A DNA stretch of 33,107 bases from a virus (taxonomy: Duplodnaviria > Caudoviricetes), in the IMG/VR virus record IMGVR_UViG_3300020045_001432, positions 1 through 33,107 of that record. One strand, given 5' to 3'. Below the pieces are notes generated by a model. That model made no database searches. It had not been told where the DNA came from and saw only the letters and a list, made by a program, of their open reading frames with translations. Positions 2,583 through 32,545 of the stretch are shown one piece after another (position 1 is the stretch's first letter; each line of letters begins with the position of its first letter). The translations under genes and the position numbers were made by a program.

Positions 2583-3176
2583 TTACTTATTACCCCCGGT
2601 AATTGTTTTCTTGGATGTATTTATGGTTCTTTCCTTTAATTGGGCAGCTTCAATTATCTTAGGCAGAGTGCTGTTAGGACGTATGTCACCAACATGGCTG
2701 TATAATGCACCTTTGTACATAATTGGTCCCATCCAGGTTGGCTCTCCGTTACGTGGAGTGACCTTTATCTTTAGTTGGTATCCAAACATACGTGCCATTG
2801 CAACGTAGTCTTGTTTCAATACCAGTTCTGCAAATTCAGCAGATAGTGGATATCCTTCTGTGACGCATTCCTTTACCAGAGCGCGCATGCCTCTTGTTGC
2901 GTATGCAGGTGGCATGTTTTGAATGGACATGAAGAAGCGGAGGTCATTGATCCGCTTCTTGTCTTCATTAATGCGGGCAATTATGTCATCAGTTGGATCA
3001 ATTTCAGGAACGATAGATGTCATTGGTTGCTTTCCTTTGTTGCGGTATGCTTTCTTGCGCTCTGATTGCTCTTTAACCCACTCTGGATCTTGGCGTTTCT
3101 TTTCCAGCCATAAGAGTTGGTTCTTGCGACGATTGGCTTTGTACTCATCACTGTACGTCTTCTTTGGGTTGGTCAT
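2583..3176 (-). CDS. Hypothetical protein with basic helical N-terminus (probable start 3176; track start 3257)
   Basis: K/R-rich N-terminus MTNPKKTYSDEYKANRRKNQ followed by a globular region. Confidence 0.65.
   Translation of the reverse strand: MTNPKKTYSDEYKANRRKNQLLWLEKKRQDPEWVKEQSERKKAYRNKGKQPMTSIVPEIDPTDDIIARINEDKKRINDLRFFMSIQNMPPAYATRGMRALVKECVTEGYPLSAEFAELVLKQDYVAMARMFGYQLKIKVTPRNGEPTWMGPIMYKGALYSHVGDIRPNSTLPKIIEAAQLKERTINTSKKTITGGNK
2587..2603 (-). promoter_or_regulatory. 17-nt RBS hairpin ATTACCGGGGGTAATAA, copy 1
   Basis: Identical to 31022..31038; an ATTACC/GGTAAT stem covers the terS Shine-Dalgarno sequence. Confidence 0.65.
2618..2624 (-). promoter_or_regulatory. ATAAATA late-promoter-like motif upstream of terS
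   Basis: One of at least 13 minus-strand copies placed upstream of starts. Confidence 0.65.
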
Positions 3177-3450
3177 TTGGTGTTTGCAACTTATGTTGCT
3201 TCTTTCTCTGGATATGGTCTGCGTATATTTTGGACAGCTTGTCTTGATTGCGCTCACGCCATCTACGTTGATACTCGCGTTGGTAGGCTTTCCATTCTTC
3301 TAGATGGGCCTCTTTATAGCGCTTTACTGCTTCGCGGTTACGGATCTGCACTTCATCTTCTTCGTAGGTGTGTTCGTCTTCAGGTAGGTACTTGCGTGGA
3401 CGGCCTGGCTTTCTCTTTAATTTTGTTTCCATAATTTGCCCCATTGTCAT
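3148..3450 (-). CDS. AT-hook-containing basic helical protein
   Basis: KRKPGRPRKY AT-hook followed by YQREYQRRWRERN helical repeats. Confidence 0.7.
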   Translation of the reverse strand: MTMGQIMETKLKRKPGRPRKYLPEDEHTYEEDEVQIRNREAVKRYKEAHLEEWKAYQREYQRRWRERNQDKLSKIYADHIQRKKQHKLQTPNDQPKEDVQ

Positions 3451-3472
3451 TATGTATTATTTATGCTAAAGT
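3444..3472 (+). promoter_or_regulatory. Sigma70-like promoter for the plus-strand operon
   Basis: TTGTCA (3444-3449), 17-nt spacer, TAAAGT (3467-3472), with an extended -10 TG. Confidence 0.55.
3458..3464 (-). promoter_or_regulatory. ATAAATA late-promoter-like motif
   Basis: 7 nt before the ATG at 3450; overlaps the divergent sigma70-like promoter. Confidence 0.6.
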
Positions 3473-3512
3473 CCCCTCATCAGATGACAAATAGATTAAT
3501 CAGGTGAATTAG

Positions 3513-4046
3513 ATGAAACTTTTTATGAAGCAACTCCGCAGCACCCCTACAATGAAGATGCGCAATGCATTCTTTGGTGACCTCCATGGTCGCGATATTA
3601 TGAAGTGGGTGAACAAGTTCTATGGTTCTGGGATGGACATCATGCAAATTGGTGCTTCCATTAAGGCTGAACTTGGGGATGTTGCTGGGGATGTGATCTA
3701 CAAGATTGCATTCAGCCTTGATTGTCTGTTTACTGATATCAAGAAGATGGGCATTCAGCCTAAATCAAACAAGACCACTTATACCGTTGAAGAGATTGCT
3801 GCAAAGATCCTTGCATGCGATGATCAATTCTTTACTGTTACATTCATCAAGCGTACATCTGGTGAAGTCCGTACAATGAATTGCCGTCGTAATGTAGTCA
3901 AGCATTTGGCAGGCGGTGAGCTCAAGTACATCATGGCTGATAAAGGATTAATCAGCGTATGGGATCGGCAAGCAGATGGGTATCGTGCCATCAATATAGG
4001 TGGGATTGTTAGTGCCACTATTAATGGTACTACATACACAACTTAA
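3513..4046 (+). CDS. Protein with C-terminal WYL_2/SH3 beta-barrel-like domain
   Basis: FFTVTFIKRTSGEVRTMNCRRNV...LISVWDRQADGYRAIN resembles phage WYL_2 (DUF2693-like) proteins; the N-terminal ~90 aa are unrecognised. Confidence 0.65.
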   Translation: MKLFMKQLRSTPTMKMRNAFFGDLHGRDIMKWVNKFYGSGMDIMQIGASIKAELGDVAGDVIYKIAFSLDCLFTDIKKMGIQPKSNKTTYTVEEIAAKILACDDQFFTVTFIKRTSGEVRTMNCRRNVVKHLAGGELKYIMADKGLISVWDRQADGYRAINIGGIVSATINGTTYTT

Positions 4047-4059
4047 TGAGGAAATTCAA

Positions 4060-4254
4060 ATGAAGAAAATCGCAACCGCTCTGTTAATGCTAATTTCGTT
4101 TAGTGCCATAGCTGCCCAGGCGCAGCTGGTGTCATGTGATCTATCTACGTCCGTAACCGGTAGGTTCGTTTACGTAGGTACATACCAATATTATGGTCAA
4201 TATGTGCAAAGGACATTTCCCTCACATTGTCCACACATCATTGAGGTGTATTAA
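4060..4254 (+). CDS. Small secreted protein, 64 aa, with signal peptide
   Basis: GAGGAA RBS; Sec-type signal MKKIATALLMLISFSAIA; two Cys in the mature part. Confidence 0.75.
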   Translation: MKKIATALLMLISFSAIAAQAQLVSCDLSTSVTGRFVYVGTYQYYGQYVQRTFPSHCPHIIEVY

Positions 4255-4257
4255 CAG

Positions 4258-4374
4258 ATAAAGAAAGAGCCATGGAAACCTCACGTAAACATGGCTCTAT
4301 TATTCTCCGGTTGTTAATTGGACCTATTCCAATTAAGTCACCTACTATGGTTCAGACATCGCTACGTGAGCGAC
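4258..4374 (-). ncRNA. Candidate small RNA, about 115 nt
   Basis: Lies between a TTGCCT-N16-TATAAT promoter and a hairpin plus U-tract, with two further internal hairpins and no substantial ORF. Confidence 0.4.
4266..4298. terminator. Probably bidirectional terminator hairpin
   Basis: AGAGCCATG/CATGGCTCT 9-bp stem between convergent units; TTCTTT follows it on the minus strand. Confidence 0.6.
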
Positions 4375-5670: not shown

Positions 5671-5723
5671 GTTGTTACCCAATTAAAATTAAAAACATTA
5701 GGGTTACCTAATTCCGTTCAGGC

Positions 5724-5835
5724 AAAAGGAAACTCCTCAAGTTTGGTCGGCCTACCGAAGGCGCACTTGAGGAGTTAATGTAAAAACGTTCAGTTGTACT
5801 TCGGTAGTTTTAGAGAGCTGCGACCAAACAGCTCT
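5724..5835 (-). promoter_or_regulatory. Two-hairpin leader/attenuator with loop complementarity
   Basis: 7-bp hairpin 5814-5835 and 12-bp hairpin 5731-5776 followed by TCCTTTT. 5821-5828 pairs with 5742-5749, and 5799-5807 pairs with 5752-5760. Confidence 0.7.
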
Positions 5836-5842
5836 GTGAATG

Positions 5843-5878: not shown

Positions 5879-5907
5879 ATCATACGACTATTTACAAAAG
5901 ATGTCAA
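5879..5907 (-). promoter_or_regulatory. Near-consensus sigma70 promoter
   Basis: TTGACA (5907-5902), 17-nt spacer, TATGAT (5884-5879). Confidence 0.7.
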
Positions 5908-6988: not shown

Positions 6989-6995
6989 TATTTAT
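6989..6995 (-). promoter_or_regulatory. ATAAATA late-promoter-like motif
   Basis: About 29 nt before the ATG at 6959. Confidence 0.65.
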
Positions 6996-7302: not shown

Positions 7303-7716
7303 CTAAGGGTTCACGATTTCTATAGACACTGTATCTTTTTGATTCAATGCCTTGTTAATGATGTCAAACAATTTGCCAAATGCAATACGACTGTTGTAGA
7401 TGGATTGTCCATCAGAGCTAACAGTATCACCAGGAAGGATACAGCCTTCTGTATCACGTTGTGTATTTCCAGGATGGATTCTCACACCTTCAAAGTTCGG
7501 TACATTATTTAGAAGAGGAAGCAATCTACCAAATCGTGGCGATTGTGTCACCGTAACTTGGTAGACGCCTGCTGGTATTGCAGTGCTTCCATGAACTTTT
7601 GGTTCATTAATGCGAACTTGATCTTCCAATGTAAAGCAGATAAAGGTACTACCGTTGAACAATCGTCCAAGAGTAGTACCGTTTAGTGTTTGGTAGCGCT
7701 TCAGTGTTAGCTTCAT
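7303..7716 (-). CDS. DUF5675-family protein, candidate endolysin
   Basis: TLGRLF...CFTLED...TAIPAGVY...SPRFGR...VPNFEGVRIHPGN...DTEGCILPG. Confidence 0.8.
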   Translation of the reverse strand: MKLTLKRYQTLNGTTLGRLFNGSTFICFTLEDQVRINEPKVHGSTAIPAGVYQVTVTQSPRFGRLLPLLNNVPNFEGVRIHPGNTQRDTEGCILPGDTVSSDGQSIYNSRIAFGKLFDIINKALNQKDTVSIEIVNP

Positions 7717-10199
7717 GCTGTCACCACATATGGATAACCACCACCAGCTGATGTGGACATTTGAATCACAGAAGCCTTCAGTGTTGCCTGAGCTGATCCA
7801 AAGTCTGCCTGTTGTTGAGCAACCGTGTATGTGAATGAAGTACTCACAGTGGTTGCTGAACGAACTGCGACATCAGAACTGTTGATGATTGCAACAGCAT
7901 ATCCACCCCAATCGGTATCGTGACTGATTTCGGTGTAGTCACGAAGACCATTGTTGAATCGTGGGCGTTCTACCCATGTGATAGTCCAATCGCCATTGAC
8001 CTCTTTAACAGCCTTTGGTTGTGCTACACGCCATGGACGCATATTAAGACCATATGGTTGTACGTCATCAGATGTAGCTTTGGAGATATCACTACCAATG
8101 GTAACCGTCTTGTACTTGACCGTCTTGCCGATATCAGCAGATTCCAAAGCGATTGGTGTCAGTTGGTCATCTAGAATAACAAACAACTCGTTGGTAACAT
8201 GTGAACCACACTTTACTTCACTACCAGCACGACCACGAAGCAGACGTGACAGCGTGTAAGTGTTTGTGCCTGTCAGTGTTGCGTTGACGAAACCAATCAC
8301 TTCTTCACCAATCATGCACCAGTTTGTACCATTCTGAACAGCAATGTCTGTGCTGTTATTCAACACACCTTGCTTCAGTTGTACAGAAATCGTAGTCGTT
8401 GTATCCCACACGTGGTAGTCAGCAGGAGCATTCAATGCGGAAGCTGCGATACCAAAAGTAGGAGTCTTGTTGGATGTAGTCACATTGCTGTACGTAGCAC
8501 CACCGTCAACTGAACGATACAATGAAGCACCTGGCCAACCACTAGCACCATAACCATGAACAATTGCAAATATACGAGCAACTGACTCATTATCAGATAG
8601 AGGAGGAACTTCAATGAACAACGACTGTGAATAACCAATGGAAGACACAGTGTTGGTTGTCTGAGCTGGAGTTGGAGTTACTGTCACACCGGATGCAGCA
8701 TACGACGACGATGCAAAGTCAGCACGCACTACAGTGAATTCCAATAAGCCATCATCAGTCTCTCTCACCTGAAGGATACGGACGTTAGTAGTGCCGCCAG
8801 AATCAAGTGGAATAGCGATAATATCGCCTGGCTCTAGGTCAATGTTGTAGTAGTCAGTGATGAATGTGTATTGTTGCTGTTCAATATGTGAATTAACCAA
8901 CGATGATTCAGTGATACGCTTAGCTTCGTCATCAGAAAGCGTGAATGGAACTTCCAGCTTTACATCTTGACCAGCAGTGAATGTTTCCAACGTAGACACT
9001 TGTGTGAATATGTTGTGATCCAAAGCAGAAGAGTAGTAGTTCAATGTGACGCTACGTGGTAGGTCAATACCTTGAACACGCTTTGCTGTGTAAGCTGCGG
9101 ATCCAGTCATTGAGTTCTCAGCGCGTGTGTGGCCTAAGTCTTCAGACGTCAAAGTACGAACCACACTAAGAGTACGTGGAATGAACTTAACTGTTGATCC
9201 AGATTGGACGATATCAAACTGATACACTGTAGCCAAATTAGCCAACACATCACGAATTGGCATTGTGCTGCTGATTGTGAAATGAACTTCCTTCGTTGGT
9301 AGCTGAGTAACATCAAAATCCAATGCTGCATAACCAGCAAACGTCATTAGTGAAGCCACAACGTCAGGTAAACTTGGGGCAGTAAAGGTTCCATTATAGC
9401 CAGCAGTGCCGGTGTAACGAGAGTCAGCCTGGCCATCACCCGTTCCGTCTTCGGACATCATATCAGAAATCTTCACACCAGCGTAGATCAGGCCAGCACC
9501 AAGTGCTAATGCCTGTAACCAATCACCAACTGTAGCTGTATCAATCCAGTCAAACACCGAATCCTTCAATGCAGTTAGGAAGTCTTTTTCAGCTGGAGGC
9601 ATTGCGGCAACGGTAACATCAGTCATCGCGTCCCAGTTAACAGCCCAGAATGAGCCAAATCCAGGCTCATCACCACCTGATGAAGTGTGATCTGCAGAAC
9701 ATACGTAAGCATTACCAGTTGCCTGATTGCGTACGACGTCATTCTTTTTGTAGTCAAATGAATCTGACCAATCTCCACGCCAACGCAGGCGATCGGATTC
9801 TCCAAACTTCTCCCAGTTTGTTTCCCAATCAAGACCAGTACCTGGCTCGTTACCTGTATCGGAAGTGTGTGTGGCAATACAGATATACACAATACCATCA
9901 TGGGACACCAAAGATGTACTACATGGGGTGCCACCTTCTTTGTAGTAATTGGTAGTTGCTGCCCATGCATTCTCCCATTTGAGGCCGCAACCAGCCTCAC
10001 CAGAAGGACCAGCTGGTCCTTGGGGTCCTTGAGATGGGCAGCAAACAGTTTGAGTAACAACTTGGCCTGGCTTTGTAACAACAGCAGATGACCCGCCTGA
10101 ACAGAACTCAAACTTTGCATCAGGAGATGATGCTGTCACCGATCCTGGATTAGAGTTGTCTGTTTTACGAGCACGTTTTGGAACTGGACAAATACTCAT
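7713..10199 (-). CDS. Tail tip/host-specificity protein (C-terminal part of a GTA-megatron/gpJ-like protein) with N-terminal CBM-like repeats
   Basis: YQFDIVQSGSTVKFIPR, DLPRSVTLNY, LEPGD, GEEVIGFVNATL and LSRLLRGRAGSE motifs; two Trp/Tyr repeats ending YxC..xHTS near the N-terminus. Confidence 0.85.
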   Translation of the reverse strand: MSICPVPKRARKTDNSNPGSVTASSPDAKFEFCSGGSSAVVTKPGQVVTQTVCCPSQGPQGPAGPSGEAGCGLKWENAWAATTNYYKEGGTPCSTSLVSHDGIVYICIATHTSDTGNEPGTGLDWETNWEKFGESDRLRWRGDWSDSFDYKKNDVVRNQATGNAYVCSADHTSSGGDEPGFGSFWAVNWDAMTDVTVAAMPPAEKDFLTALKDSVFDWIDTATVGDWLQALALGAGLIYAGVKISDMMSEDGTGDGQADSRYTGTAGYNGTFTAPSLPDVVASLMTFAGYAALDFDVTQLPTKEVHFTISSTMPIRDVLANLATVYQFDIVQSGSTVKFIPRTLSVVRTLTSEDLGHTRAENSMTGSAAYTAKRVQGIDLPRSVTLNYYSSALDHNIFTQVSTLETFTAGQDVKLEVPFTLSDDEAKRITESSLVNSHIEQQQYTFITDYYNIDLEPGDIIAIPLDSGGTTNVRILQVRETDDGLLEFTVVRADFASSSYAASGVTVTPTPAQTTNTVSSIGYSQSLFIEVPPLSDNESVARIFAIVHGYGASGWPGASLYRSVDGGATYSNVTTSNKTPTFGIAASALNAPADYHVWDTTTTISVQLKQGVLNNSTDIAVQNGTNWCMIGEEVIGFVNATLTGTNTYTLSRLLRGRAGSEVKCGSHVTNELFVILDDQLTPIALESADIGKTVKYKTVTIGSDISKATSDDVQPYGLNMRPWRVAQPKAVKEVNGDWTITWVERPRFNNGLRDYTEISHDTDWGGYAVAIINSSDVAVRSATTVSTSFTYTVAQQQADFGSAQATLKASVIQMSTSAGGGYPYVVTA

Positions 10200-11383
10200 T
10201 AGAGATCCCCGTAATAATTTTGTGCACCGGTACCGATCATTGCAGTACCCAACACATCCATACTATTTACACAAACCAAAGAGCTCAACCGAACAGCGTA
10301 TAGAGCAGATGCTGTATACACAAACGCATATGGTTTAACAGTCTTTGACACAAACGTGGATCCATCCCATACTTCAAACGTAAGCTGAGGTGTAACACAA
10401 CCTCCTAATACAATACCAACATCAAACAATAGAGCAGCGCCAGGAACAAAATCCTCAGATTCTGGGTCTTGTTGGAACTTGATTTTCTTGTCAGCTTTAG
10501 TAAGTTGGGCAATTGACGATCCGCCTCCTAGATACTGGAGTTTGCCAGACGTCAGAGCTGCTGTGCGTAATGCTGTTGGATCCTCAGGATCGCCTGCGAC
10601 TTGGACCACATCTGCTAGGTTGAGCAATGACCCCCCAGTCGCAGCAAAATTGGTAAACGTAGCAGTAGATGTATCAAAAACTGATAGCATTCCTTTGAGA
10701 GGGTCATCTTGTGCATCACTAGCAATGTATAGCTGTTGATATTGGTTTGTGTGCAGAAGGTACGGGTGTCTATTAATACGGTGCTGGCTTACATACGCAC
10801 CAGATGTCGTAAACTTTGCAATAGCGTGATCATTCAGGCACGTTACGTATATGTGACCATCCAATCCATCCGCTAAGCTACGAGGAATGTATTGTTTCTT
10901 CCCAGGAATGAGAACAGGAGAACTCCACGTGCTTGTAATCAGATCATAGAAACACAAACCTTGACAATCACTGGTTGGAACCCCACCTGGCATTGTAGAA
11001 TGGTCGGAGTCATACGTAACAAACCACAGTTTGTTATTGGCTACGCAAATGGTGAATTGCATCGGTACTGGCAATGCCACAGTAGTCCCAACAATGGCAT
11101 ATGTTGTTTTGTCGTACGCTTTCAATTCCATGCCACTAACCACATACATCTTATCGTCGTGACTGACCATATTGTTGATTGTTGCTCCGTGGTCAATCGT
11201 GGCAACCAACTTCAATTCAAAGAGTCCACGATCAAATTGATACTCTTGAGTGAGGTATTCCTCATCAATGTATGAATACACTTTTATCTGGGTACCCGTA
11301 GATACCCAGATATCGCGACCATCATGTGCAATGTTATTAATGCCTGATTGTGTTGTAACGAGTGTTTGTTCAAATAGCCACAT
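10199..11383 (-). CDS. Probable beta-propeller virion protein
   Basis: Blade-like repeats (DGRDIWVS, DDKMYVV, NNKLWFV, DGHIYVT, QQLYIA). Confidence 0.65.
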   Translation of the reverse strand: MWLFEQTLVTTQSGINNIAHDGRDIWVSTGTQIKVYSYIDEEYLTQEYQFDRGLFELKLVATIDHGATINNMVSHDDKMYVVSGMELKAYDKTTYAIVGTTVALPVPMQFTICVANNKLWFVTYDSDHSTMPGGVPTSDCQGLCFYDLITSTWSSPVLIPGKKQYIPRSLADGLDGHIYVTCLNDHAIAKFTTSGAYVSQHRINRHPYLLHTNQYQQLYIASDAQDDPLKGMLSVFDTSTATFTNFAATGGSLLNLADVVQVAGDPEDPTALRTAALTSGKLQYLGGGSSIAQLTKADKKIKFQQDPESEDFVPGAALLFDVGIVLGGCVTPQLTFEVWDGSTFVSKTVKPYAFVYTASALYAVRLSSLVCVNSMDVLGTAMIGTGAQNYYGDL

Positions 11384-11384
11384 A

Positions 11385-11966
11385 TTAATAATCCGTAGTT
11401 TCGTATTCGTCAGCGAATACCTTCACAACCAATTCCCCAAGATTACCATAATCCAATGCTGTTCCAGGCTCAACTAACAACTGTGTGACCAGATACTGAG
11501 AAAAGTAAGTAGTGTTGCCAGTTAGGTGGTGGACATATGACGAAGCTGCATCTTCCGGCCCCGTTGTGCTTAGTTTTGGATATACTGTAATTCCACCAGG
11601 AGGAACATATATTAATGATCCATCCATGACGTCAGACGATTCGCTGTATTCGTTTGTTAATCTGTAGTACAACTTCACTTTGGTTGTGCCTTCGTACCCC
11701 TGAGGTGGGGAACCTGCAACATTTCCACTTATTTGAATTCGTGGGCGAGCGCCTGCTGGATACGTCCCACTGATTTTCATGAAGTTGTACTTTGTGTAAC
11801 TCCATACCACATCTGTTTCTGAACGAGTGATTGGGTGGTAGATGTAACTATTAGACTCATCGGAGCCAGATTTCTTCCACCCAATATTCTCAACAGCAAT
11901 GCGGGTAGTGCCACGGCCAGAGACCGCAGCACCAGAGTCTTCGTAAAGCTCAACCAACATTGTCAT
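11385..11966 (-). CDS. Probable minor structural protein
   Basis: Beta-rich 193 aa protein coupled to its neighbours in the tail module. Confidence 0.6.
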   Translation of the reverse strand: MTMLVELYEDSGAAVSGRGTTRIAVENIGWKKSGSDESNSYIYHPITRSETDVVWSYTKYNFMKISGTYPAGARPRIQISGNVAGSPPQGYEGTTKVKLYYRLTNEYSESSDVMDGSLIYVPPGGITVYPKLSTTGPEDAASSYVHHLTGNTTYFSQYLVTQLLVEPGTALDYGNLGELVVKVFADEYETTDY

Positions 11967-23106: not shown

Positions 23107-23246
23107 TATAGGTCCTTTTGTTGAGCCATAATGGCCTTTTGTTGTTGGATGGCACGCTTCTTACCATTTTTTCCAATGTATACTTTGCCAGTCTGGCCAA
23201 CTCGCCAACCAACCTTGCCGTTCACTTGTACTCTAACTAGTGGCAT
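23106..23246 (-). CDS. Small basic protein, 46 aa
   Basis: Translated by hand as MPLVRVQVNGKVGWRVGQTGKVYIGKNGKKRAIQQQKAIMAQQKDL. GAGGAA RBS, TAATG coupling, upstream ATAAATA. Confidence 0.75.
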   Translation of the reverse strand: MPLVRVQVNGKVGWRVGQTGKVYIGKNGKKRAIQQQKAIMAQQKDL

Positions 23247-23265
23247 GTGTGTTCCTCATTTGCTG

Positions 23266-23272
23266 TATTTAT
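23266..23272 (-). promoter_or_regulatory. ATAAATA motif
   Basis: 19 nt before the ATG at 23246. Confidence 0.65.
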
Positions 23273-23532
23273 GGTTTAGGAGTTTCATCATCTTGTGATG
23301 TAGTTGGTGCTGATTTATCAAACAACCGGATCAGCGTTCTGTTACCAATCACAACAACACCAAATAGTGCCCAAATCATAACATCAACATTAGTACCATG
23401 CATAACGGCAAACACAAATGTAAAGCATAAGCAACCATACCCAACGTTAGACCAAAACTTAGTATGCGATGGCTTACCTGTTCTTTGGTCTAACATTAGC
23501 ATTGAGAAGATGGTTGCGAACAGCTTCTTCAT
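23269..23532 (-). CDS. Holin-like membrane protein (DUF2644-like)
   Basis: RTGKPSHTKFWSNVG motif plus two hydrophobic segments. Confidence 0.65.
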   Translation of the reverse strand: MKKLFATIFSMLMLDQRTGKPSHTKFWSNVGYGCLCFTFVFAVMHGTNVDVMIWALFGVVVIGNRTLIRLFDKSAPTTSQDDETPKP

Positions 23533-23936
23533 TTCTTTTCCGTTTGTGATTGGTACATTGGAGCGGATCCTTGTTGCACTACATCATGTGTCACATTGTT
23601 CCACGTGGCTACAGCAATGTACATAGCGATTGCCCCTGATATGATTAGGACAGCGTTCTTAATAACCTCAAACTTCATCTTTTTCAAGAACTCGGTGCGG
23701 GCGGTCTCTTCTACGATTTTCATACGTGCCCATGAGTGGTGTTCTTTGTGTTCAACAGGATTAAAGTCACCAAAGTGATCTTTGAATAGCTGTTCAATTC
23801 GTGTATGGAACCCACGATCTTCTGTGATGTATCGGTCAATGTGTGTGCATAGTTTTTCTACTGTGCCTTGTACTTCAATCAGACCATTACGTCGTTCGGA
23901 TTCAGGTAGCTTTTCTGGGGTGTCGTCTTGGTGCAT
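23529..23936 (-). CDS. Single-TM membrane protein (holin/antiholin-like)
   Basis: ERR N-terminus, EHKEHH and one C-terminal TM helix. Confidence 0.55.
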   Translation of the reverse strand: MHQDDTPEKLPESERRNGLIEVQGTVEKLCTHIDRYITEDRGFHTRIEQLFKDHFGDFNPVEHKEHHSWARMKIVEETARTEFLKKMKFEVIKNAVLIISGAIAMYIAVATWNNVTHDVVQQGSAPMYQSQTEKK

Positions 23937-23951
23937 TTGTTTTTCCTTAGG

Positions 23952-23984
23952 TTGGTCTAAATTACGGTTAGGTATTTAGACCAA
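23952..23984. promoter_or_regulatory. 11-bp inverted repeat overlapping a CTAAATA promoter variant
   Basis: TTGGTCTAAAT (23952-23962) and ATTTAGACCAA (23974-23984). Confidence 0.5.
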
Positions 23985-24002
23985 ATCCCTCAAATGATGC
24001 TG

Positions 24003-25424
24003 TTAGAACGTCTTTTCAATGTATAAGCTCATGATGTCAATACCAACAGCTGTGGCTTGAGTAGCACCAGTACTGCGGATTGCCTGTGGAGCTAGCAATG
24101 TTCCTGAGTTTGGTGATAATCCGGTTAATGAGAAAGTTCCTCGTGCAGTATCACCAGTATTGAGACGAATAACTTCATATTCAACATTAGCTGTGTCAAA
24201 TGGGCTAGAAAACAGGCGAACTTCATACACTGACGTCTTATCAACAGGGAAGTTCGCGCCGAGGTCTACATCTGTTCCCAAGGAGCCGCCAGCGCACCGG
24301 ATCTTGAAGTTTGTACCACCTGCATCTTGGATTAGACCAAAACAAGCCGTTGTTGGCAATGCAGTTAATGGCCCAGATTGTGTGGTCATACCCACAAACA
24401 TCCAACGGCCTGTAGACACCAGTGTCACATCAGACACAGCAAATCGGTAGACCATATAAAACCCACCCAACCCAGTACCATCACCCAGTGTCCATTGACG
24501 AACAGTCCACGACTGACCACATTGAGTATTAATGGTAGCTGCAGTAACATAACCAAGGCGACGTGTACGATTGACAGCAGACGTTGATGCAGTTGTGCGG
24601 GCAGTTGCTGTGCCATTTGCAGTCGGAGCTACCAATCCCAACACACCTGGGACGGTGGTTGCATTGCCTGGAGGATTCCACCAACCGATGTCCTTAGAAC
24701 CAAAATGTGGTTGTAGAAGATCATCAGCTGCACCACCAATACCCAAGTCCGGATGCTTCACGGAGATTGATGGATAAGCAGAGTTGCTCTTGTAGATGAC
24801 AATGTTACTATTTGATGATGGTACCGATGGTGATGATGTTTGTACCAGTTCAAGATCGCCAGTTGCAGTAATCTTTGATCCAGATACCCCACCAAATGCG
24901 CCAGCGTTGTTGTATTGAAGCTGGCCAGTTGATCCAGCTGGGGAGGCAGAAACAGTAGCCCACGATGAATCAGTACCGTTGGTTGTAAGGAACTTACCTG
25001 AATTTGAGGTTTGTGATGGAAGGATTGCGTTTGCAGCAGCATTTTGAGTCGTTGCGCCGGTACCACCCTTGTTCAATGCCAATGTGCCAGCCAAATTGCC
25101 GATAGCAACACTGCCTGGTTGGAATGTGACAGTTGGGTTTCCACTAGTACCATCAGCGTTTGTGACAGTAATAGCACCATCACCAGATGCTATGGTGCGA
25201 TATTGTGGCGATCCACCGGCGCCGCAGATAATGCCAGTACCAAGACTGTTTGCATTCGTAAAGTCAGCACGCATCATTTCAATAATGCTATCAGAGCCAG
25301 CATTACGTTTGATGTATAGTTTGCCGTCATATGTGTTGACAGCGATTTCACCTAATGATAGGTCAGTAGTTGCAGGAACTTTTCCTGGAACAGCACTACG
25401 TTTTAGTACTATTGTATTAGCCAT
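24003..25424 (-). CDS. Fibre protein with MANTIxxKRS-type N-terminal anchor
   Basis: MANTIVLKRS...LSLGEIAVNTYDGKLY; G/T/S-rich shaft; lectin-like C-terminus. Confidence 0.75.
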   Translation of the reverse strand: MANTIVLKRSAVPGKVPATTDLSLGEIAVNTYDGKLYIKRNAGSDSIIEMMRADFTNANSLGTGIICGAGGSPQYRTIASGDGAITVTNADGTSGNPTVTFQPGSVAIGNLAGTLALNKGGTGATTQNAAANAILPSQTSNSGKFLTTNGTDSSWATVSASPAGSTGQLQYNNAGAFGGVSGSKITATGDLELVQTSSPSVPSSNSNIVIYKSNSAYPSISVKHPDLGIGGAADDLLQPHFGSKDIGWWNPPGNATTVPGVLGLVAPTANGTATARTTASTSAVNRTRRLGYVTAATINTQCGQSWTVRQWTLGDGTGLGGFYMVYRFAVSDVTLVSTGRWMFVGMTTQSGPLTALPTTACFGLIQDAGGTNFKIRCAGGSLGTDVDLGANFPVDKTSVYEVRLFSSPFDTANVEYEVIRLNTGDTARGTFSLTGLSPNSGTLLAPQAIRSTGATQATAVGIDIMSLYIEKTF

Positions 25425-25442
25425 ATGGCACTCCTGAAAGTA

Positions 25443-25468
25443 AGAAAGGGAGAATATTCTCCCTTTCT
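25443..25468. repeat. Perfect 26-bp palindrome (terminator or operator)
   Basis: AGAAAGGGAGAAT|ATTCTCCCTTTCT. Confidence 0.7.
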
Positions 25469-25487
25469 ATTTACTCGCATTGTTAGG

Positions 25488-26564
25488 TTAGAACGATCCA
25501 CCATCCAATGTTGAAGAGCTGGTCAGGTAACCAGGATCAGCAACAAATTCAAGAGCAGATTCACCAGCATTCACCTTAACAAACTTGCTACCATGTCCTG
25601 TGTATGAACTTGGAGCATCAGACAGAGATGTGAAAGCAGACACGCCTGAGGATGGAGTTGCATTCACCCAGTTGGTACCATTGTATGTCAGAACCTGAGT
25701 GTTAGATGGAGTCGTGATAACAACATCAGATAAGGCATTGATTGACGCTGCAGCAATTTGTGTATTTGCACGTGAATCAGCTGCTGTAGAGAAGTCAGAA
25801 ATGTCAGTACTTGACAAGTTAACAGTTGAGAACGTTGCAGCACCGGTACGCTTAATGAAACCAGTCGTTGACAGAGCAGCGATTGCAGACAGGTCAGCGT
25901 CAAAAGCTTGAACAGACGAACCAACAGCAGCAGTGATGCGGGCATCAGCAGCGGTAGAGAAGTCAGTGATCTGCGAAGCTGTGTGAGTGTGACCTTCAAG
26001 GCTGAATGCAGTGAATGCACCACCGGCAACTTCAACACCCCACTTTGTTTGCGATTCTTTCCAGATCAGACGCATGTTGGTTGACGAACCACGAACTGCT
26101 TCAATACCGATATCTACTGAAGGAGTACCAGTTTGACCAGAAGCTAGTTGTATAATGTTGTCTGCAACGTCAACTGTAGTGCTGTTCACGTGTGTGGTTG
26201 TGCCATTGACCGTCAGGTCACCAGTAATCGTGACGCTGTTACCGAACGTCTTGTCACCGTTGATGGTTTCAGAACCAGTCTTGTGGACATAGTCAGCTTC
26301 TGCAAAGTCAGTGATGTCAGCCTTAACCAGTGTTACAGCTCCGGTCTTACCAGCAACAGAATCCACAGTATTGACTTCAGCGCCAGCTTCAATACCGGCC
26401 AGCTTTAGATGATCAGCGGAACCACCAATGGCAGTAACACCAGCGCCACCGACATCACCAATGAACAGGGTGCTTGAGTTGTATGAATACGCCAGTTCGC
26501 CTTCACTCAATGATACTGGTGTAGCGGTTACCTGGGAACGTTTGATCTTGATTGTATTTGCCAT
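25488..26564 (-). CDS. Fibre protein with MANTIxxKRS-type N-terminal anchor
   Basis: MANTIKIKRS...LSEGELAYS; GDLTVNGTTTHVNSTT; HTH fibre motif; LDGGSF C-terminus. Confidence 0.75.
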   Translation of the reverse strand: MANTIKIKRSQVTATPVSLSEGELAYSYNSSTLFIGDVGGAGVTAIGGSADHLKLAGIEAGAEVNTVDSVAGKTGAVTLVKADITDFAEADYVHKTGSETINGDKTFGNSVTITGDLTVNGTTTHVNSTTVDVADNIIQLASGQTGTPSVDIGIEAVRGSSTNMRLIWKESQTKWGVEVAGGAFTAFSLEGHTHTASQITDFSTAADARITAAVGSSVQAFDADLSAIAALSTTGFIKRTGAATFSTVNLSSTDISDFSTAADSRANTQIAAASINALSDVVITTPSNTQVLTYNGTNWVNATPSSGVSAFTSLSDAPSSYTGHGSKFVKVNAGESALEFVADPGYLTSSSTLDGGSF

Positions 26565-26576
26565 AATAGTCTTTCC

Positions 26577-26981
26577 TTAAAAATATCCAGCGTTAAGTGT
26601 GACGGAACCAAACGTTCCATTCAGTTCTTCTTTCAGTGGAATTGCTTCCCATGATGCGTTACGATACACATTTAATGTATCATCTGTTGTGTTGTACCAA
26701 AGCAGACCTTCGGTTGGTGTCACAGGGGCGGTTGGGCCAGTGTACGTGCCTTCACCAGACGGACCTTGTGGGCCAGTGTCTCCAGTATCACCCTTTGGGC
26801 CTTGTGGTCCGGTGTTACCAATTGGACCCTGCACGCCTTGGATGCCCTGTATCCCTTGTGGGCCTTGAACACCCTGAGGACCTTGAGGACCAACCGGTCC
26901 TTGGATACCTTCAGGGCCTTGACTGCCACCAACCTCAATAATCAGGTTGTCTTTTTCAGTAACTAATGCGTAGTTTGCCAT
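26577..26981 (-). CDS. Short collagen-like fibre protein
   Basis: About 19 Gly-X-Y triplets followed by GLLWYNTT. Confidence 0.85.
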
Positions 26982-26993
26982 GTATTTACCTTT

Positions 26994-28157
26994 TTATCGT
27001 GTCACAGTAATGGAAACTTGAACATAGTCCAAACCAACATACAGTGTGTTACCAGTGCTCATATTTACTAACACTGGGCCTTGGATTGGGTACGCAAGAG
27101 CACTGAATGCACGGCTGTATACCATAACGTCATCAATGTAATACTGGATCAGGTCAGTTGCATTGTCGTAAACAATCTTGAAAGTGTACCATTGAGCAGC
27201 GACTGGAGTGATTGATGTTTCAAATGTTCCCACGTTAGATGCAGCATCATTGTAACGACAGATGAAGTGGTTGCCGTTTGCTCCATTGAGGTATTCAAAA
27301 CCAACCCCAGCTGGTGTGGCTCCACCAAATCCATCAAAGATACCACATTTCATGTGCGCTTGGGTTCCACCGGAAGTCAACGTGTTCATCTTTACGCGCT
27401 GAATAACTGTAAATCCAGTCTGCTGGAACCAACGAATAACGATTGTTGGATACAAATAAGAAGTACCACCGTTGATTGATAGGTTGGCGCCTAGTTGAAA
27501 CCAACCAATTGTGTTCTGTGCATCGGTTGCATTCCATGCTGTTTCATATCCATTAAACGCAAACTTACCATTTGGGGAGTAGGATTCAGCAACTGTAGAT
27601 GCATTTGTTTTAACCCAGTACCAGTCACAGTCATCATTCCAACCATAAGATTGTGATAGAGGAGCGTTTGAACCAGACGGACCTTGTGGGCCGGTAGGAC
27701 CAACATCACCAGTGTCTCCTTTAATACCCTGAATACCTTGAATGCCCTGCGGGCCTGTGTCGCCAGTATCACCTTTTGGTCCGGTAGGACCTACTGGGCC
27801 TTGACTACCTTGTGGGCCAGTATCTCCGGTATCACCTTTAACGCCCTGGATACCCTGAGGACCAGTATTGCCAGTATCACCTTTTGGTCCGGTTGGGCCA
27901 GTGTTGCCAGCAGATCCTTGATCACCCTTTGGACCTACTGTGCCTTGAGGGCCGGTTGGGCCAACAACACCCTGTGGTCCTTGAGGGCCTGGGGCACCAG
28001 TAACACCTTGGATACCATTGGATCCAGCAGGACCAGGGACACCCTGAGCTCCTTGGATACCTTGTGGGCCAGGTTCTCCTTGAGGTCCTTGCAATCCCTG
28101 TGACAACTCAACAGTGATTCCACGATCTTCTTGGATTACAACTTCATAATCAGCCAT
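26994..28157 (-). CDS. Collagen-like fibre protein with C-terminal lectin-like domain
   Basis: About 48 Gly-X-Y triplets; WYTFKIVYD...QYYIDD beta-sandwich pattern. Confidence 0.85.
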
Positions 28158-28498
28158 TATCGGGTCACCTCTTTGCTGAGTACAGCCTTACCTTGCAGTA
28201 AACGATCAACAACACCGCTTGGATACACAATTTCAACGTCATAAACGCCAGTATCAAAGCCAAGAGCGGCCGTAACCACATTGGATAATGAGATTGTGAA
28301 CTCACCATTGGCTGCATCTGTGATGGCTGTAACAAAGGAAGCCACAGGAGAAGCATCTTCAACAGCTGTTCTCACTTGTCCACGCACAGTACAACCAGTA
28401 ATGTCAACGGGTAGCTGACTCACTGACTCTTTAACGGTGATCTTTTGAATGTAATCAGATCCTTGTTGGATCAAAATGTTGTACTTGCCAGCTGCCAT
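28157..28498 (-). CDS. Ig-like/BppU-like fibre adaptor protein
   Basis: [11 protein letters not shown]...VDITGC...GVYDVEI...RLLQG...EVTR. Confidence 0.7.
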
Positions 28499-28499
28499 G

Positions 28500-28757
28500 T
28501 TAGATATCTCCGTGATCTGCGATTACTCGTTTTGCAGTCTGAGTGAGTTGACTCATCTTTTCTGCGAATTCGTTTGGTTCAACCGTGGCTTGCCCATTGT
28601 TGAACTCCATGATGTGCTCTCTGTGAACGAAAGCGAATGTAAAAACACCACGTCTACCTTCACTTGCTACCTTTGTGATCTGGTTGCCCTTGAGTCTCAA
28701 GTAAGCAGCCAGTGGGACATGCGGTGTTTTGTATTCTGTTATCAGATTTGTATCCAT
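28500..28757 (-). CDS. Small DUF5659-like protein, paralog of 888..1103
   Basis: YKTPHVPLAAYLRLKG...GVFTF...TVEP pattern; AAGGA RBS. Confidence 0.65.
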   Translation of the reverse strand: MDTNLITEYKTPHVPLAAYLRLKGNQITKVASEGRRGVFTFAFVHREHIMEFNNGQATVEPNEFAEKMSQLTQTAKRVIADHGDI

Positions 28758-28782
28758 TTAATTTTCCTTTTGTGTTTGGGGT

Positions 28783-29334
28783 TTAGCGGGCGAGGGTTAG
28801 CGTTCCTTCTCCATTCCACGCATTTGAACCAATTGCCTTCAGCAACGTCTTAACCTTTGTTGGGATACGGTCAGCTTTCATGTTGCTCTTGATGCCGATA
28901 TCCAAAGGACCAACCTTGTATGTAGACAATGTTTCCAGATCGTTCTCATCTACAGTGAACTCGCCGGCCTTCATCTTCAAGTAATGCAGTGCTTGTTCAA
29001 ATGCTGCCTGCTTTAGTTGTGCAGGAATGGTTGCATCGTCAAGGTAACCAACTGAGTCACCACTAATGGTTGCTTGTGATTCACGGTTGTAGTCACGAGA
29101 GATCACATAACGACGTGGCCATTGTAGGGATTGTGTGTGAGTTGTACGTTGACCACCAAATAGTTCCACATCAATGCGGTTGGTAGCCATTACCAGTGCT
29201 GCTTGCTTATCTTTTGCTGTAGATGGCCAGAAATCACCATCCAAATGGGCAGCAAAGTAGTCATCTGCTTCAGAAACTGAAACGTAACTATTTGCGGTTG
29301 CACTCTTTGCGGTGCTGTCAAAAACGAATGCCAT
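28783..29334 (-). CDS. Head-tail connector/adaptor (so-called DnaT-like family)
   Basis: ANSYVSVSEADDYF...AALVMAT..ID...QSLQWPR...IPAQLKQA...KVGPL; directly after the capsid gene. Confidence 0.8.
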   Translation of the reverse strand: MAFVFDSTAKSATANSYVSVSEADDYFAAHLDGDFWPSTAKDKQAALVMATNRIDVELFGGQRTTHTQSLQWPRRYVISRDYNRESQATISGDSVGYLDDATIPAQLKQAAFEQALHYLKMKAGEFTVDENDLETLSTYKVGPLDIGIKSNMKADRIPTKVKTLLKAIGSNAWNGEGTLTLAR

Positions 29335-29361
29335 AATTGTTATCCTCGGTAAGGTATGATC

Positions 29362-29368
29362 TATTTAT
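29362..29368 (-). promoter_or_regulatory. ATAAATA motif
   Basis: 27 nt before the ATG at 29334, downstream of the capsid terminator. Confidence 0.65.
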
Positions 29369-29392
29369 GTTTGCTGATGTTTGCTATTGTGC

Positions 29393-29423
29393 AAACAGAA
29401 AAGGCCCCCGAAGGAGCCTTTTT
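29393..29423 (-). terminator. Intrinsic terminator with C(UUCG)G loop after the capsid gene
   Basis: AAAAGGCTCC-TTCG-GGGGCCTTTT then CTGTTT. Confidence 0.85.
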
Positions 29424-29446
29424 CTTGATTACTACTTGTGTTACGA

Positions 29447-30328
29447 TTAAACGAACTCGGTAACAGCAGCCAGACCACGGATGTTGTGGATAGCCAGGGA
29501 ACCGTACATCTTGAGACGGAAGCGAGTTGCATCCTTGCCTTCAAGAACGATAGGAGCGTCAGCACGGAAGATGTCGCCTTGTGGAACAACCAGAGCTAGA
29601 CCTTCGTTACCGCCTTCTTCCCAGTTACCAGCGTACAGGTAGCCGTCAGCAGCGTAGTCGTTACGGATGAAAGGAACACCGTCGTAAGTAGTGAAGTACT
29701 TACCGTTCAGTTCAACGGTCGTAACACCACCAGCAGCGCGCAACAGAGCCTTGATCTTGTTCTCGGTCTTAGCGTTACCCATCAGGAAGTCAACTTGTGA
29801 ACCCTTAGAGATAACCTTTGACTTAGCTTCGTCAATGTGAGCGAAGGTCAATGCAGCACCGTTGGTATCAACCAATTGGTCAGCGAAAGCGCCAGACAGA
29901 ACAGCAGCGTTCAGACCATCAAAGTTGTTTGCGCCAGCTGTACCAGAAATGGTCAGAGCGTTGAACTTACGTGCAATACCCTTAGCAGCGTTTGCGATTG
30001 CAACAGCTTCTGGATCGTTACCAGCGTTTGCGCCAGCGCCTTGAGCCATGGTCAGACCAGTGACGTCAAATTGACCAGAGATACCTTGCAGAGCCAAGGA
30101 AACTTGGGTGATGTCCAGAGCGGACGAATCAGTGATTGTGCCGTCAGCAGCGATCAGTTGGCCATCAATGCCAGTCGTTTCGCGGTTGAAGACATATGCA
30201 TTACCAGCGACTTGCTTAACTGGCAGTTGAGCCAGGAAGTCAGACACGGTAATAACGGTTTCGGCCAGGCCGACTTGCAGGTCGTCAAGACCTAGTTGAG
30301 ATACTTCAGAGAAAGTGAAAAGTGCCAT
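29447..30328 (-). CDS. Major capsid protein (HK97 fold)
   Basis: LPVKQVAGNAYVFNRE, NNFDGL, YDGVPFIRND and RLKMY motifs; follows the scaffold and precedes a terminator. Confidence 0.9.
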   Translation of the reverse strand: MALFTFSEVSQLGLDDLQVGLAETVITVSDFLAQLPVKQVAGNAYVFNRETTGIDGQLIAADGTITDSSALDITQVSLALQGISGQFDVTGLTMAQGAGANAGNDPEAVAIANAAKGIARKFNALTISGTAGANNFDGLNAAVLSGAFADQLVDTNGAALTFAHIDEAKSKVISKGSQVDFLMGNAKTENKIKALLRAAGGVTTVELNGKYFTTYDGVPFIRNDYAADGYLYAGNWEEGGNEGLALVVPQGDIFRADAPIVLEGKDATRFRLKMYGSLAIHNIRGLAAVTEFV

Positions 30329-30361
30329 TTTAGGACTCCAATAAGGTTGTAGATTACAGTG

Positions 30362-31021
30362 TTATTTACGACGGTTTGCCAAACCAGCTGCAATTTTTTC
30401 GCTTGCAGACTTTTCATGTTGGACAGGACCCGCCTTAATTGTTTTTTGTGCTCCAGACCCTCTGGATTGAGCAAATAAATGTGGGGCAGTTTCTGACAAA
30501 GCTTGAATCCAGTTGGTAACACCCATTGGGTTGCCTTCTTTATCAATCAGCTTCGTCTTAGGTACTGGCTTGCCTTCTTTAACAGCAAACGTTTCCTTAG
30601 CTCTTGCCAACACATCTGGTAGCGCGCTTTCCAGTACCCCGTACTTAATTGCTGCTTCCTTGACACCATCCGAAAGAACCACACGCTCAAGGTGTTGCTC
30701 AAGTGCATTCTTCTGTTCGGATAAAGCATTCAGTTGTGACGAATAGTTCGTCTTCAATTCTGCTACATGGGTTTCCAGTAGCGTTTCAATATTTACTCCT
30801 GTGCCAGCTTTTTGTTCCAGCTCTTTGCGCAGGGCGATATTGTTTTCACGGAATTCTTTTAGCTTGCCTTCCGTTTCGGTGAACTTGGTTGTGACCTCTT
30901 GTAGCTTAGCGACTGGAACAACACCTTCCACGTCAAGAACATAGGTACCAGATTCAGATTGTTTGTAGTAAGCCTTTACTTCTTCTGCAGGCTGCTCAGC
31001 AGTTTCATACGGTAGTGCCAT
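30362..31021 (-). CDS. Capsid scaffolding protein
   Basis: YVLDVEG, EFRENN, a coiled coil, APHLFAQSRGSGA and SASEKIAAGL. Confidence 0.85.
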   Translation of the reverse strand: MALPYETAEQPAEEVKAYYKQSESGTYVLDVEGVVPVAKLQEVTTKFTETEGKLKEFRENNIALRKELEQKAGTGVNIETLLETHVAELKTNYSSQLNALSEQKNALEQHLERVVLSDGVKEAAIKYGVLESALPDVLARAKETFAVKEGKPVPKTKLIDKEGNPMGVTNWIQALSETAPHLFAQSRGSGAQKTIKAGPVQHEKSASEKIAAGLANRRK

Positions 31022-31038
31022 TTATTACCCCCGGTAAT
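31022..31038 (-). promoter_or_regulatory. 17-nt RBS hairpin ATTACCGGGGGTAATAA, copy 2
   Basis: Identical to 2587..2603; directly before the scaffold ATG. Confidence 0.65.
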
Positions 31039-31056
31039 GTTATAATTTTCATTTAG

Positions 31057-31087
31057 AGGGTGGGATCAACCATGAAACCCACCCTCA
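31057..31087. promoter_or_regulatory. Hairpin in the scaffold leader
   Basis: GAGGGTGGG/CCCACCCTC 9-bp stem. Confidence 0.5.
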
Positions 31088-31103
31088 TTCAGTTCAACAA
31101 AAG

Positions 31104-31110
31104 TATTTAT
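31104..31110 (-). promoter_or_regulatory. ATAAATA motif upstream of scaffold/capsid
   Basis: Overlaps the portal stop codon; about 82 nt before the ATG at 31021. Confidence 0.65.
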
Positions 31111-32513
31111 GCGTTTGTACTCATTTGTGATCGTAAATTTTGGTCACGATTCAAAGCATCAGCTTCTTCAAATGATTCTTCTGGTTCAGATTCTTGGGCT
31201 TCGCCTGGTTCTTCTTGACCAGTTAGGCCTTCTTTCTCTTCTTCAACAGAGTCAACAATCTCACCTTCATACAAACGTTGCAGCATGGTATCCAATGTGA
31301 TAGCACCTTGCTTGAATGCATCCAACAGAACACGGATTTCATCAGGAGACATCTTGGATGGGCTAAAGTCCTTGTTAAGTTGAAGATCAACTTCTGCTTC
31401 TGGATAGCCAAACCATAGGTTGTACATCTCAAGAATCTCTGTGAGTGCGTTCTCCAAGCTGTTGGCCACTGTGGTCAATGATGCACCCTCAGCACCCAAA
31501 CGCATCTGTAGTGCATCTGAACTTTCAACACCAGCTTTGTACTGAAGCAGACGGCTACCAAGGCTGAACATTTGCTCTTCTTTGGTCTTCTGCAGATCCA
31601 TCAGGAACGACATACCAGATCCTTGGAACTCCCAGAAGCCAACAGTAGAACCTTGTTGCAGTTGGACGACTTCATCAGAACCAATACGAACTACCTGTGC
31701 ATCATTAGCAAGGTTGCCAGATACGTATGGAGTTGGTAGTGCCAAGAAGTGAGCACCGTGGGCAATGTCCACAGCAATCTTGAAGTGCTCAATGTTGATG
31801 TCAGCCAGATTGAACAATGTTGGCTTGTATACGTTCTTGCTTGTATCGTATGGAGTACAGAACACAAATGGTAGGAACTCAAGAGCCTGACCACGATATG
31901 TTGGTTGTACTTCTTCTACCAGCTTGAATTGTGTCTTTGATGTGACTTCAGCGAACTTACCAGTGGAACTAGCTTGTTGTTCCCAGATACGGACAGTGTA
32001 GTAGCCATCTTCATCAAGGAACAGTTCACGATAGCGACACTTCTTCACCGTCATGTAACGGTCAGAAGCATCTTGTGTGTAAAAATGTTCACGAAGAACC
32101 ACAAAATCATCGCCCCAGTTGGTGATGTCTTCACTGCGGTAGACCAACAGATATGGGCTATCCCATTCAGCACTGTAGTCACACATTAGGCCAATACGGC
32201 CACCGGTCATCAGTTCAACATATGCTTGTTGTACGAGTTCCTCAAATGAGCAGTCATCAGCACAAACTGGATCATCTCCAACCACACCTTCAACGGTTAG
32301 TGGCTTGCGCATCAATGCACCAAGCAACGCCATCATTGTGCGGTCTACCACATTGTAGTAGGATGCACGGCTGCGGTAGTTCTCATATTGAACATTTGTT
32401 TGACCAGACAATCGTGGAACATAGTCCTTGACTTCGCCCTCAAATGCGTCTTTGGTTTTCATCACATATCCGATGTGACGTTGGTATTCTGGGTGGGTAC
32501 TATTAATTGGCAT
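31107..32513 (-). CDS. Portal protein (DUF4055-like)
   Basis: HPEY, YENYRSRASYYN, KPTLFNLADINIEHF and HGAHFLALPTP; follows terL. Confidence 0.9.
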   Translation of the reverse strand: MPINSTHPEYQRHIGYVMKTKDAFEGEVKDYVPRLSGQTNVQYENYRSRASYYNVVDRTMMALLGALMRKPLTVEGVVGDDPVCADDCSFEELVQQAYVELMTGGRIGLMCDYSAEWDSPYLLVYRSEDITNWGDDFVVLREHFYTQDASDRYMTVKKCRYRELFLDEDGYYTVRIWEQQASSTGKFAEVTSKTQFKLVEEVQPTYRGQALEFLPFVFCTPYDTSKNVYKPTLFNLADINIEHFKIAVDIAHGAHFLALPTPYVSGNLANDAQVVRIGSDEVVQLQQGSTVGFWEFQGSGMSFLMDLQKTKEEQMFSLGSRLLQYKAGVESSDALQMRLGAEGASLTTVANSLENALTEILEMYNLWFGYPEAEVDLQLNKDFSPSKMSPDEIRVLLDAFKQGAITLDTMLQRLYEGEIVDSVEEEKEGLTGQEEPGEAQESEPEESFEEADALNRDQNLRSQMSTNA

Positions 32514-32538
32514 GGTTATTCCTCAAATATTCTGTTTC

Positions 32539-32545
32539 TATTTAT
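32539..32545 (-). promoter_or_regulatory. ATAAATA motif upstream of the portal gene
   Basis: 25 nt before the ATG at 32513. Confidence 0.65.

Follow-up and report, generated by a model that had tools for sequence, protein, structure and literature searches.

The 33,107-nt stretch of DNA analysed here (the window), which is IMG/VR virus record IMGVR_UViG_3300020045_001432 (Duplodnaviria; Caudoviricetes), encodes a small siphovirus in which nearly every transcription unit is preceded by a short box, RTAAATA, resembling the late promoters that gp55 reads in phage T4. Our analysis suggests that RTAAATA is a gp55-type late promoter that the phage itself cannot read, and that the phage is a satellite in the manner of the virophages, its helper being a large phage related to T4, possibly a jumbo phage, from which it would borrow late transcription and probably also replication; judged from sequence comparison, we put the probability of this reading at roughly 60%. 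The genome is complete: its record carries a terminal repeat of 121 bp and falls in the direct-terminal-repeat class at 100% completeness, giving a circle of 32,986 bp.

Exact counting over the whole window gives 13 copies of ATAAATA on the minus (coding) strand and none on the plus strand, and 24 copies of the TAAATA core on the coding strand against none on the opposite one. Markov models of order 1-4 predict 1.0-2.7 copies of ATAAATA, and under orders 2-4 it ranks top among the 7-mers that occur at least 7 times. The zone 6-100 nt upstream of start codons or of a tRNA-like gene makes up 13% of the genome and holds 12 of the 13 ATAAATA sites (p 3e-10) and 18 of the 24 TAAATA sites (p 9e-12), compared with a mean of 2.5 and a maximum of 7 in 1000 dinucleotide shuffles of the upstream 100-mers. 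A TAA stop codon contributes to 4/24 TAAATA and 4/13 ATAAATA sites. Because the shuffles, the positions and the small number of stop-codon sites all speak against it, the excess is not a product of AT-richness or of TAA stops, a cause that the comparison of the family with its outgroup, given below, likewise rules out. A preliminary description of this DNA had listed the 13 minus-strand ATAAATA sites and none on the plus strand, together with a single full T4 consensus TATAAATA at 21612 and the variants GTAAATA at 30363 and CTAAATA at 23973; the exact count reproduces every one of these positions, the full consensus occurring once (21612-21619, 1/24 sites), and adds TAAATA sites that the description had missed, such as 25468, 10264, 27062 and 5889. 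Its further claims that the boxes lie upstream of starts and that several directly follow terminators agree with the 12/13 placement and with stem-loops 5' of the boxes at 29362, 20731 and 6989, and the enrichment that it expected over shuffled sequence persists after correction for AT-rich intergenic DNA and TAA stops. Most boxes stand 25-50 nt before a start, with some up to 88 nt upstream and some 5-7 nt from the ATG. The boxes, and one canonical promoter that encloses a further copy, are as follows (coordinates begin at the low end of the 7-mer; orthologue counts refer to the family described below).

32539..32545, minus strand: ATAAATA box of the portal gene, 31 nt from first T to ATG; same place in 8/17 portal orthologues
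31104..31110, minus strand: ATAAATA box of the scaffold gene, overlapping the portal TAA stop; 15/18 scaffold orthologues
30363..30369, minus strand: GTAAATA box of the major capsid gene; 6/18 orthologues
29362..29368, minus strand: ATAAATA box of the head-tail adaptor gene, terminator-like hairpin just 5'; 6/8 orthologues
27062..27068, minus strand: GTAAATA box of a collagen fibre gene, 86 nt upstream; same in L083
25468..25474, minus strand: GTAAATA box of a 473-aa fibre gene, by motif count and position
23973..23979, minus strand: CTAAATA box of two small membrane/holin-like genes, by motif count and position
23266..23272, minus strand: ATAAATA box of a 46-aa open reading frame (ORF) and the neck genes, by motif count and position
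22078..22084, minus strand: ATAAATA box of the tail terminator gene, 37 nt upstream; exactly 37 nt in 4/4 orthologues
21612..21619, minus strand: full TATAAATA box of the major tail protein gene; 13/13 family major tail genes, at 31-51 nt
20731..20737, minus strand: ATAAATA box of the tRNA-like gene and tail chaperone, terminator-like hairpin 5'
16189..16195, minus strand: ATAAATA box of the NlpC/P60 tail gene, exactly 5 nt to ATG; as a promoter it would yield a leaderless message
10264..10270, minus strand: GTAAATA box of the central tail gene, at 70 nt; 70, 73 and 66 nt in G003, G006 and G007
6989..6995, minus strand: ATAAATA box of the non-structural ORF105-ORF139-ORF105 cluster, by motif count; stem-loop 5'
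5879..5907, minus strand: the sole near-perfect sigma-70 promoter in sense orientation, TTGACA-17-TATGAT, with GTAAATA within the spacer; identical in L083
5843..5849, minus strand: ATAAATA box of a candidate structured RNA, by motif count and comparison with L083
4867..4873, minus strand: ATAAATA box of the Holliday-junction resolvase gene (4512-4838), by motif count and gene annotation
3458..3464, minus strand: ATAAATA box of ORF100-ORF197, by motif count and position
2618..2624, minus strand: ATAAATA box of the small terminase gene; terL lacks a further box in upstream position

The same box marks a family of related genomes. Capsid searches yielded 57 proteins with E values of 1e-40 or lower, a large number of them on 30-37 kb contigs, as well as loci in viral and metagenome collections, and similarity of capsid, portal and terminase groups 19 sequences, including the window, into this family. 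Because the five most distant members (G003, G004, L091, L092 and L093) were added after their motif counts had been seen, and because L083 closely resembles the window, the set is not fully independent. Upstream TAAATA in the 19 sequences reaches 111 in sense orientation, compared with 14.7 expected and 18 antisense, whereas 68 capsid-outgroup loci (L015-L082) have 11 sense copies against 14.6 expected and 159 terminase relatives, many of them prophages, have 80 sense and 89 antisense. The box is retained in place while its flanks diverge before the major tail (13/13), scaffold (15/18), tail terminator (4/4) and adaptor (6/8) genes, with lower retention at portals (8/17) and capsids (6/18); of the three scaffold misses, one falls at a contig end, one at a wrap-around and one results from the start call. 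It is unchanged across members of 39-59% GC, including those at 58-59%. A further member, G006, has TAAATA counts of 17 vs 0, and in G007 (L337/L338), where the terL-portal block is inverted relative to the rest, the box switches strand with the portal. The family consensus is RTAAATA with a free base at -2 and nothing conserved upstream, the base profile being flat from -40 to -3 over 131 sites with no conserved -35 element. An archaeal TATA box, for which transcription starts about 25 nt downstream, is ruled out by the rarity of T at -1 and by the boxes lying 5-7 nt from an ATG, and a sigma-28-type -35 element, which contains 'TAAA', by the lack of any downstream element in the base profile. 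One of the 159 terminase-relative loci is enriched: on L197, a viral contig of 6.3 kb, a terminase relative is accompanied by tandem ATAAATA before three genes and by no family capsid or portal match, and the contig may represent a second lineage wired in the same way.

The likeness to gp55-type promoters extends to their architecture. T4 late promoters comprise a -10-like element without a -35 element, which gp55 recognises and which gp33, together with the clamp gp45 loaded on DNA, activates (PMC7892883). T4 relatives relax the first bases of the late box, giving NATAAATA in S-PM2, ATAAATA in the jumbo phage CBB and CTAAATA in Aeh1 (PMC1524935, PMC2984593, PMC5259590). The window boxes share with these promoters the TAAATA core, the -10-only form and a place 5' of virion genes; unlike T4-type phages, the genome that bears them is that of a 33-kb siphovirus rather than a T4-like myovirus, without detectable gp55, and gp33, gp45 and the T4 core genes were likewise not found in the window. 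A T at -2 occurs at 22/111 family sites compared with 14/19 in T4 (p 1.4e-5), a difference suggesting that the likely reader comes from a T4-related environmental or jumbo phage and not from T4 itself. RTAAATA with its free -2 is closer to the consensus of the 344-kb jumbo phage RsoM2USA (PMC8504454) than to that of T4, and the family -2 base is not clearly different from that of RsoM2USA (p 0.054). RsoM2USA encodes gp55 (E 6e-33), gp45 (3.5e-8) and at most a weak match to gp33, and has 97 upstream boxes against 22 expected, likewise free at -2. Three window proteins find matches within 2.5 kb of its genome, and it also matches the product of the following gene.

888..1103, minus strand: DUF5659-like gene, 48% over 97% to RsoM2USA, the sole cultured match among 50,697 records; paralogue at 28500-28757 (minus strand)

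The RsoM2USA match to this gene has a hairpin and CATAAATA 5' of it and adjoins fibre genes that are common to the window. Fibre-gene matches in general are scattered over cyanophages, jumbo phages and Vibrio phages and are not helper-specific.

Annotation of 48 non-overlapping ORFs, selected from 261 listed, with PHROGs and Pfam outlines a phage that encodes its own particle. Its virion genes form the following block.

7303..33073, minus strand: entire siphovirus block for virion and lysis, with terL 3' part, portal, scaffold, capsid, adaptor, fibres, neck, major tail, tape measure, tail tip and DUF5675 protein

The gene set includes terminases, a DUF4055 portal, a YuA-type capsid of the phrog_212 family, a gene transfer agent-like tail tip, many fibres, the DUF5675 protein and a Holliday-junction resolvase; none of the 48 ORFs is recognised as a polymerase, primase, helicase, integrase, repressor or sigma factor. 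Six-frame profile searches that scored T4 positive each time found no gp55, gp45, sigma-70 region 2 or gp33 in the window, and no gp55 in G000-G003, G006 or G007, no gp45 or sigma region 2 in G000-G003 and no gp33 in G000, G002 or G003; unfiltered phmmer searches of the 19 family sequences with the T4 gp55, gp33 and gp45 proteins had no match below E 0.8, and no sigma-like family appears among 147 non-structural ORFs of relatives. Non-structural ORFs of the window do not exceed about 200 aa, and the same is true of G006 and G007. No replication gene is recognisable in the window or in G006 and G007, which are 86-89% complete. A complete genome with its own capsid and packaging genes, in which replication and transcription genes go undetected, is the combination seen in helper-dependent satellite viruses of the MiniFlayer or virophage type. 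The preliminary description had held that the phage is wired to a sigma factor that it does not visibly encode: the -10-only box, the lack of an upstream element and the six-frame searches uphold this much, while the start of transcription at the box and the helper origin of its reader are what we infer.

Several observations weigh against this reading. A purine occupies the T4-type +1 position at 38/64 anchored sites (p 0.15), compared with 15/18 in the T4 late region. The family -1 base differs from that of RsoM2USA (p 0.0006, with no subtraction of background), the window and RsoM2USA are not similar at the DNA level, and the choice of RsoM2USA as a control followed from its top rank in a protein search; given this choice after the match, it points to a kind of helper and identifies none. 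Among five cultured controls, the gp55-bearing RsoM2USA and Moby are enriched for the box, and the gp55-bearing Cr30 and Riv-10 and the gp55-less rV5 are not, so that either the box does not mark every phage with gp55 or the test has little power when genomes are large. A primase-helicase pair is present in relatives G001 and L088, and a polymerase-like ORF of 376-437 aa in L001, G002 and G003, and neither has a trace in the window; transcription dependence looks family-wide, and replication dependence is not. Finally, no integrase or partition gene accounts for how the window phage would wait for a helper. The 376-437 aa ORF (L001:2537-3667; L098:11919-13232, minus strand; L099:17615-18856, minus strand) has no PHROGs match; its motifs YDI-x-A, K-xx-IN and HDG are presumably family-A polymerase-like, and its product is a candidate minimal DNA or RNA polymerase.

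Three other accounts of the box were weighed against a borrowed gp55. It is unlikely that the phage reads the box, as a late promoter, with an unrecognised factor of its own encoded among the small ORFs, which would make it autonomous for transcription. About a dozen small window ORFs have no PHROGs or Pfam family, and the nearest sub-clade retains ORF105, ORF139, ORF62 and a pair of DUF5659 genes; yet two-round profile searches with 18 small or non-structural window proteins found no match in the box-bearing G001 or the complete G002, which have the same box in the same places, and since no non-structural proteins are shared with these two, the box is spread more widely than any candidate reader of the phage's own. 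Nor is there a sigma-like signal in the six-frame searches, in the ESM Atlas (no usable match for ORF139 or ORF197) or in PDB profile searches (nothing below E 0.2 for DUF5659 or ORF139); the RsoM2USA counterpart of the DUF5659 gene adjoins fibre genes, and ORF105 and ORF139 themselves stand behind a box. The autonomous phage rV5, which has no gp55, gp33 or gp45, is reported to have a T4-like late motif (PMC3606486) and would be a precedent, but its TAAATA is not enriched (10 vs 7.2 expected, 8 antisense) and the published motif is another word, so it fails as a gp55-less counter-example.

We regard as quite improbable that the box is read by a host factor, whether the housekeeping sigma acting at a -10-only element or one of the host's alternative sigmas, and that host enzymes replicate the genome. 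Boxes do stand 5' of non-structural genes as well, and no family member, and thus no host, was found in 185,579 prokaryote genomes by two scans, both pattern-limited; a capsid scan for integrated members was saturated by unrelated matches, and a terminase scan returned ordinary prophages without the box. Against a host reader, however, the separate canonical TTGACA-17-TATGAT promoter indicates that the host appears to use ordinary sigma-70, the boxes have neither a -35 nor a fixed TG extension, TAAATA has no strand bias in ordinary prophages or in YuA-like capsid relatives, and the box is constant over the GC range of the family. Sigma-70-like sites in the window are not above shuffles (30 vs 35; 17 vs 26). 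The strict sense orientation of the boxes, their usual distance of 25-50 nt from starts and the purine frequency at +1 would also suit an RNA or DNA binding or processing site, such as a translation enhancer, nuclease site or repressor operator, instead of a promoter. This we consider very improbable, as boxes also occur 5' of non-coding RNAs, 3' of terminator-like hairpins and up to 88 nt upstream, and as their sequence and distance profile match the late-promoter boxes of gp55-bearing phages (PMC2984593, PMC5259590).

If a helper's gp55 is indeed the reader, the phage alone in a cell would express its few sigma-70-like units, namely the unit of the small RNA and one ORF and, perhaps, the genes on the plus strand. 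A helper would turn the host RNA polymerase into its gp55 form, whereupon all boxes would fire together; the small genome would be copied by the helper's replication proteins, which would also load the promoter-activating clamp, and the satellite would assemble and release its own particles. The phage might meet its helper by entering at the same time, as the Streptomyces satellite MiniFlayer does, an option in view of its numerous fibres. The genes of fibre or propeller type, at 10199-15139 and 24003-28157, number at least seven, beyond the need of a simple siphovirus, and some of them could bind the helper virion. A bolder form of the proposal, which we hold tentatively and at somewhat less than even odds, is that the 30-37 kb siphovirus family represents widespread bacterial virophages with complete virions, whose whole gene programme would be keyed to the gp55 of T4-related jumbo phages; the window lineage, also without replication genes, would ride the helper's replisome and sliding clamp, and the shared fibre genes would point to RsoM2USA-like giants as helpers. 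No RNA data set was listed among the sequencing runs that hold this DNA, whose shares reach 0.13 at most, a finding that speaks neither for nor against the proposal; contigs from four of the runs contain relatives across the stretch and give no indication of transcription starts or of a helper.

Known systems offer partial parallels. Known bacterial satellites mostly take capsids or tails from their helpers, and the late promoters of P4 respond to P2 Ogr. The closest functional analogy is with the virophages Sputnik, Mavirus and Guarani, whose genes carry the late-promoter motif of their giant virus, taken as borrowed transcription (PMC6723459); like them, the window phage has its own capsid and genes behind a larger virus's type of late-promoter motif, whereas virophages are unrelated to it, live in eukaryotic hosts and have a known, co-cultured helper. 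MiniFlayer and MulchRoom, both Streptomyces satellites, have their own packaging and capsid genes and no primase, and MiniFlayer lacks an integrase and enters with its helper (PMC10690885; the word 'promoter' is absent from the main text). The window phage resembles MiniFlayer in lacking replication genes and having its own capsid and packaging, and differs from both in its full long-tail set and lysis gene and in that their helpers are siphoviruses of Actinobacteria. The PLE (an element like the phage-inducible chromosomal islands) of Vibrio cholerae follows the transcription programme of its helper ICP1 (PMC13060381). PLE and P4 are integrated, take helper virion proteins and have their own replication initiators, and the window phage is the opposite; with its full head-tail set and without integrase or primase, it shows the traits neither of these nor of phage-inducible chromosomal islands (PICI) or capsid-forming PICI (cf-PICI). 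YuA/M6-like siphoviruses are the nearest cultured relatives by capsid, at about 35%, with the phrog_212 capsid and DUF4055 portal in common; the best cultured matches are 47-62 kb in size, and such phages form the 68 outgroup loci without TAAATA enrichment. The available parts of PMC12595487, PMC8096241, PMC5587285, 10.1101/2025.10.10.681744 and 10.1101/406421 describe no closer case, and the literature searched, which lies outside most subscription journals and supplements, contained no account of gp55-type promoters in use by a siphovirus or satellite.

Further features of the genome include two candidate RNA genes and a plus-strand gene.

5720..5837, minus strand: candidate non-coding RNA of ~120 nt with two hairpins; fold z -2.9 for 5700-5875
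20642..20711, minus strand: tRNA-Ala(TGC)-like gene inside the tail operon; acceptor stem differs in L083 and still pairs
3513..4046, plus strand: WYL-like C-terminal domain gene, 177 aa, no box; 99% identical in L083, neighbours 67-97%

The candidate RNA sits behind predicted tandem sigma-70 and TAAATA promoters (5720-5907), and the 8-nt loop of its first hairpin is complementary to an 8-mer in the second. Both 8-mers are invariant in L083 (1340-1515), where the second stem is altered yet still paired. It has no Rfam family and was found in the window and L083 only, exact scans returning 11 matches to a 16-mer that look unrelated and lack the partner 8-mer; it could be a switch, an immunity RNA or a replication primer. 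The tRNA-like gene is atypical, with a short D-loop and a TCCGATT T-loop, and gave no Rfam match at gathering score and 0 matches in an exact scan. The plus-strand unit at 3513-4254 also holds a 64-aa ORF with a signal-peptide-like start, and a weak sigma-70 match lies at 3444-3472; another sigma-70 match, of 11/12 bases and antisense (32592-32619, plus strand), is aimed into the terL 3' end. Between ORF113 and the resolvase, ~490 bp at 4838-5329 are free of ORFs, of which the last ~100 bp alone are kept in L083; this is a possible origin, although no iterons were found in it.

In summary, our analysis describes a phage that, if the proposed reading holds, would be a new form of helper-dependent satellite virus: a tailed phage with its own particle and a borrowed late sigma, and so a bacterial counterpart of the virophages. 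Such dependence would explain why the family has no cultured member. Boxes of gp55 type in a genome without gp55 may offer a simple genomic signature for hidden parasites of T4-like and jumbo phages, which serve in phage therapy and biocontrol, and the system would constitute a natural test of gp55/gp45 activation on a foreign genome within the same cell.

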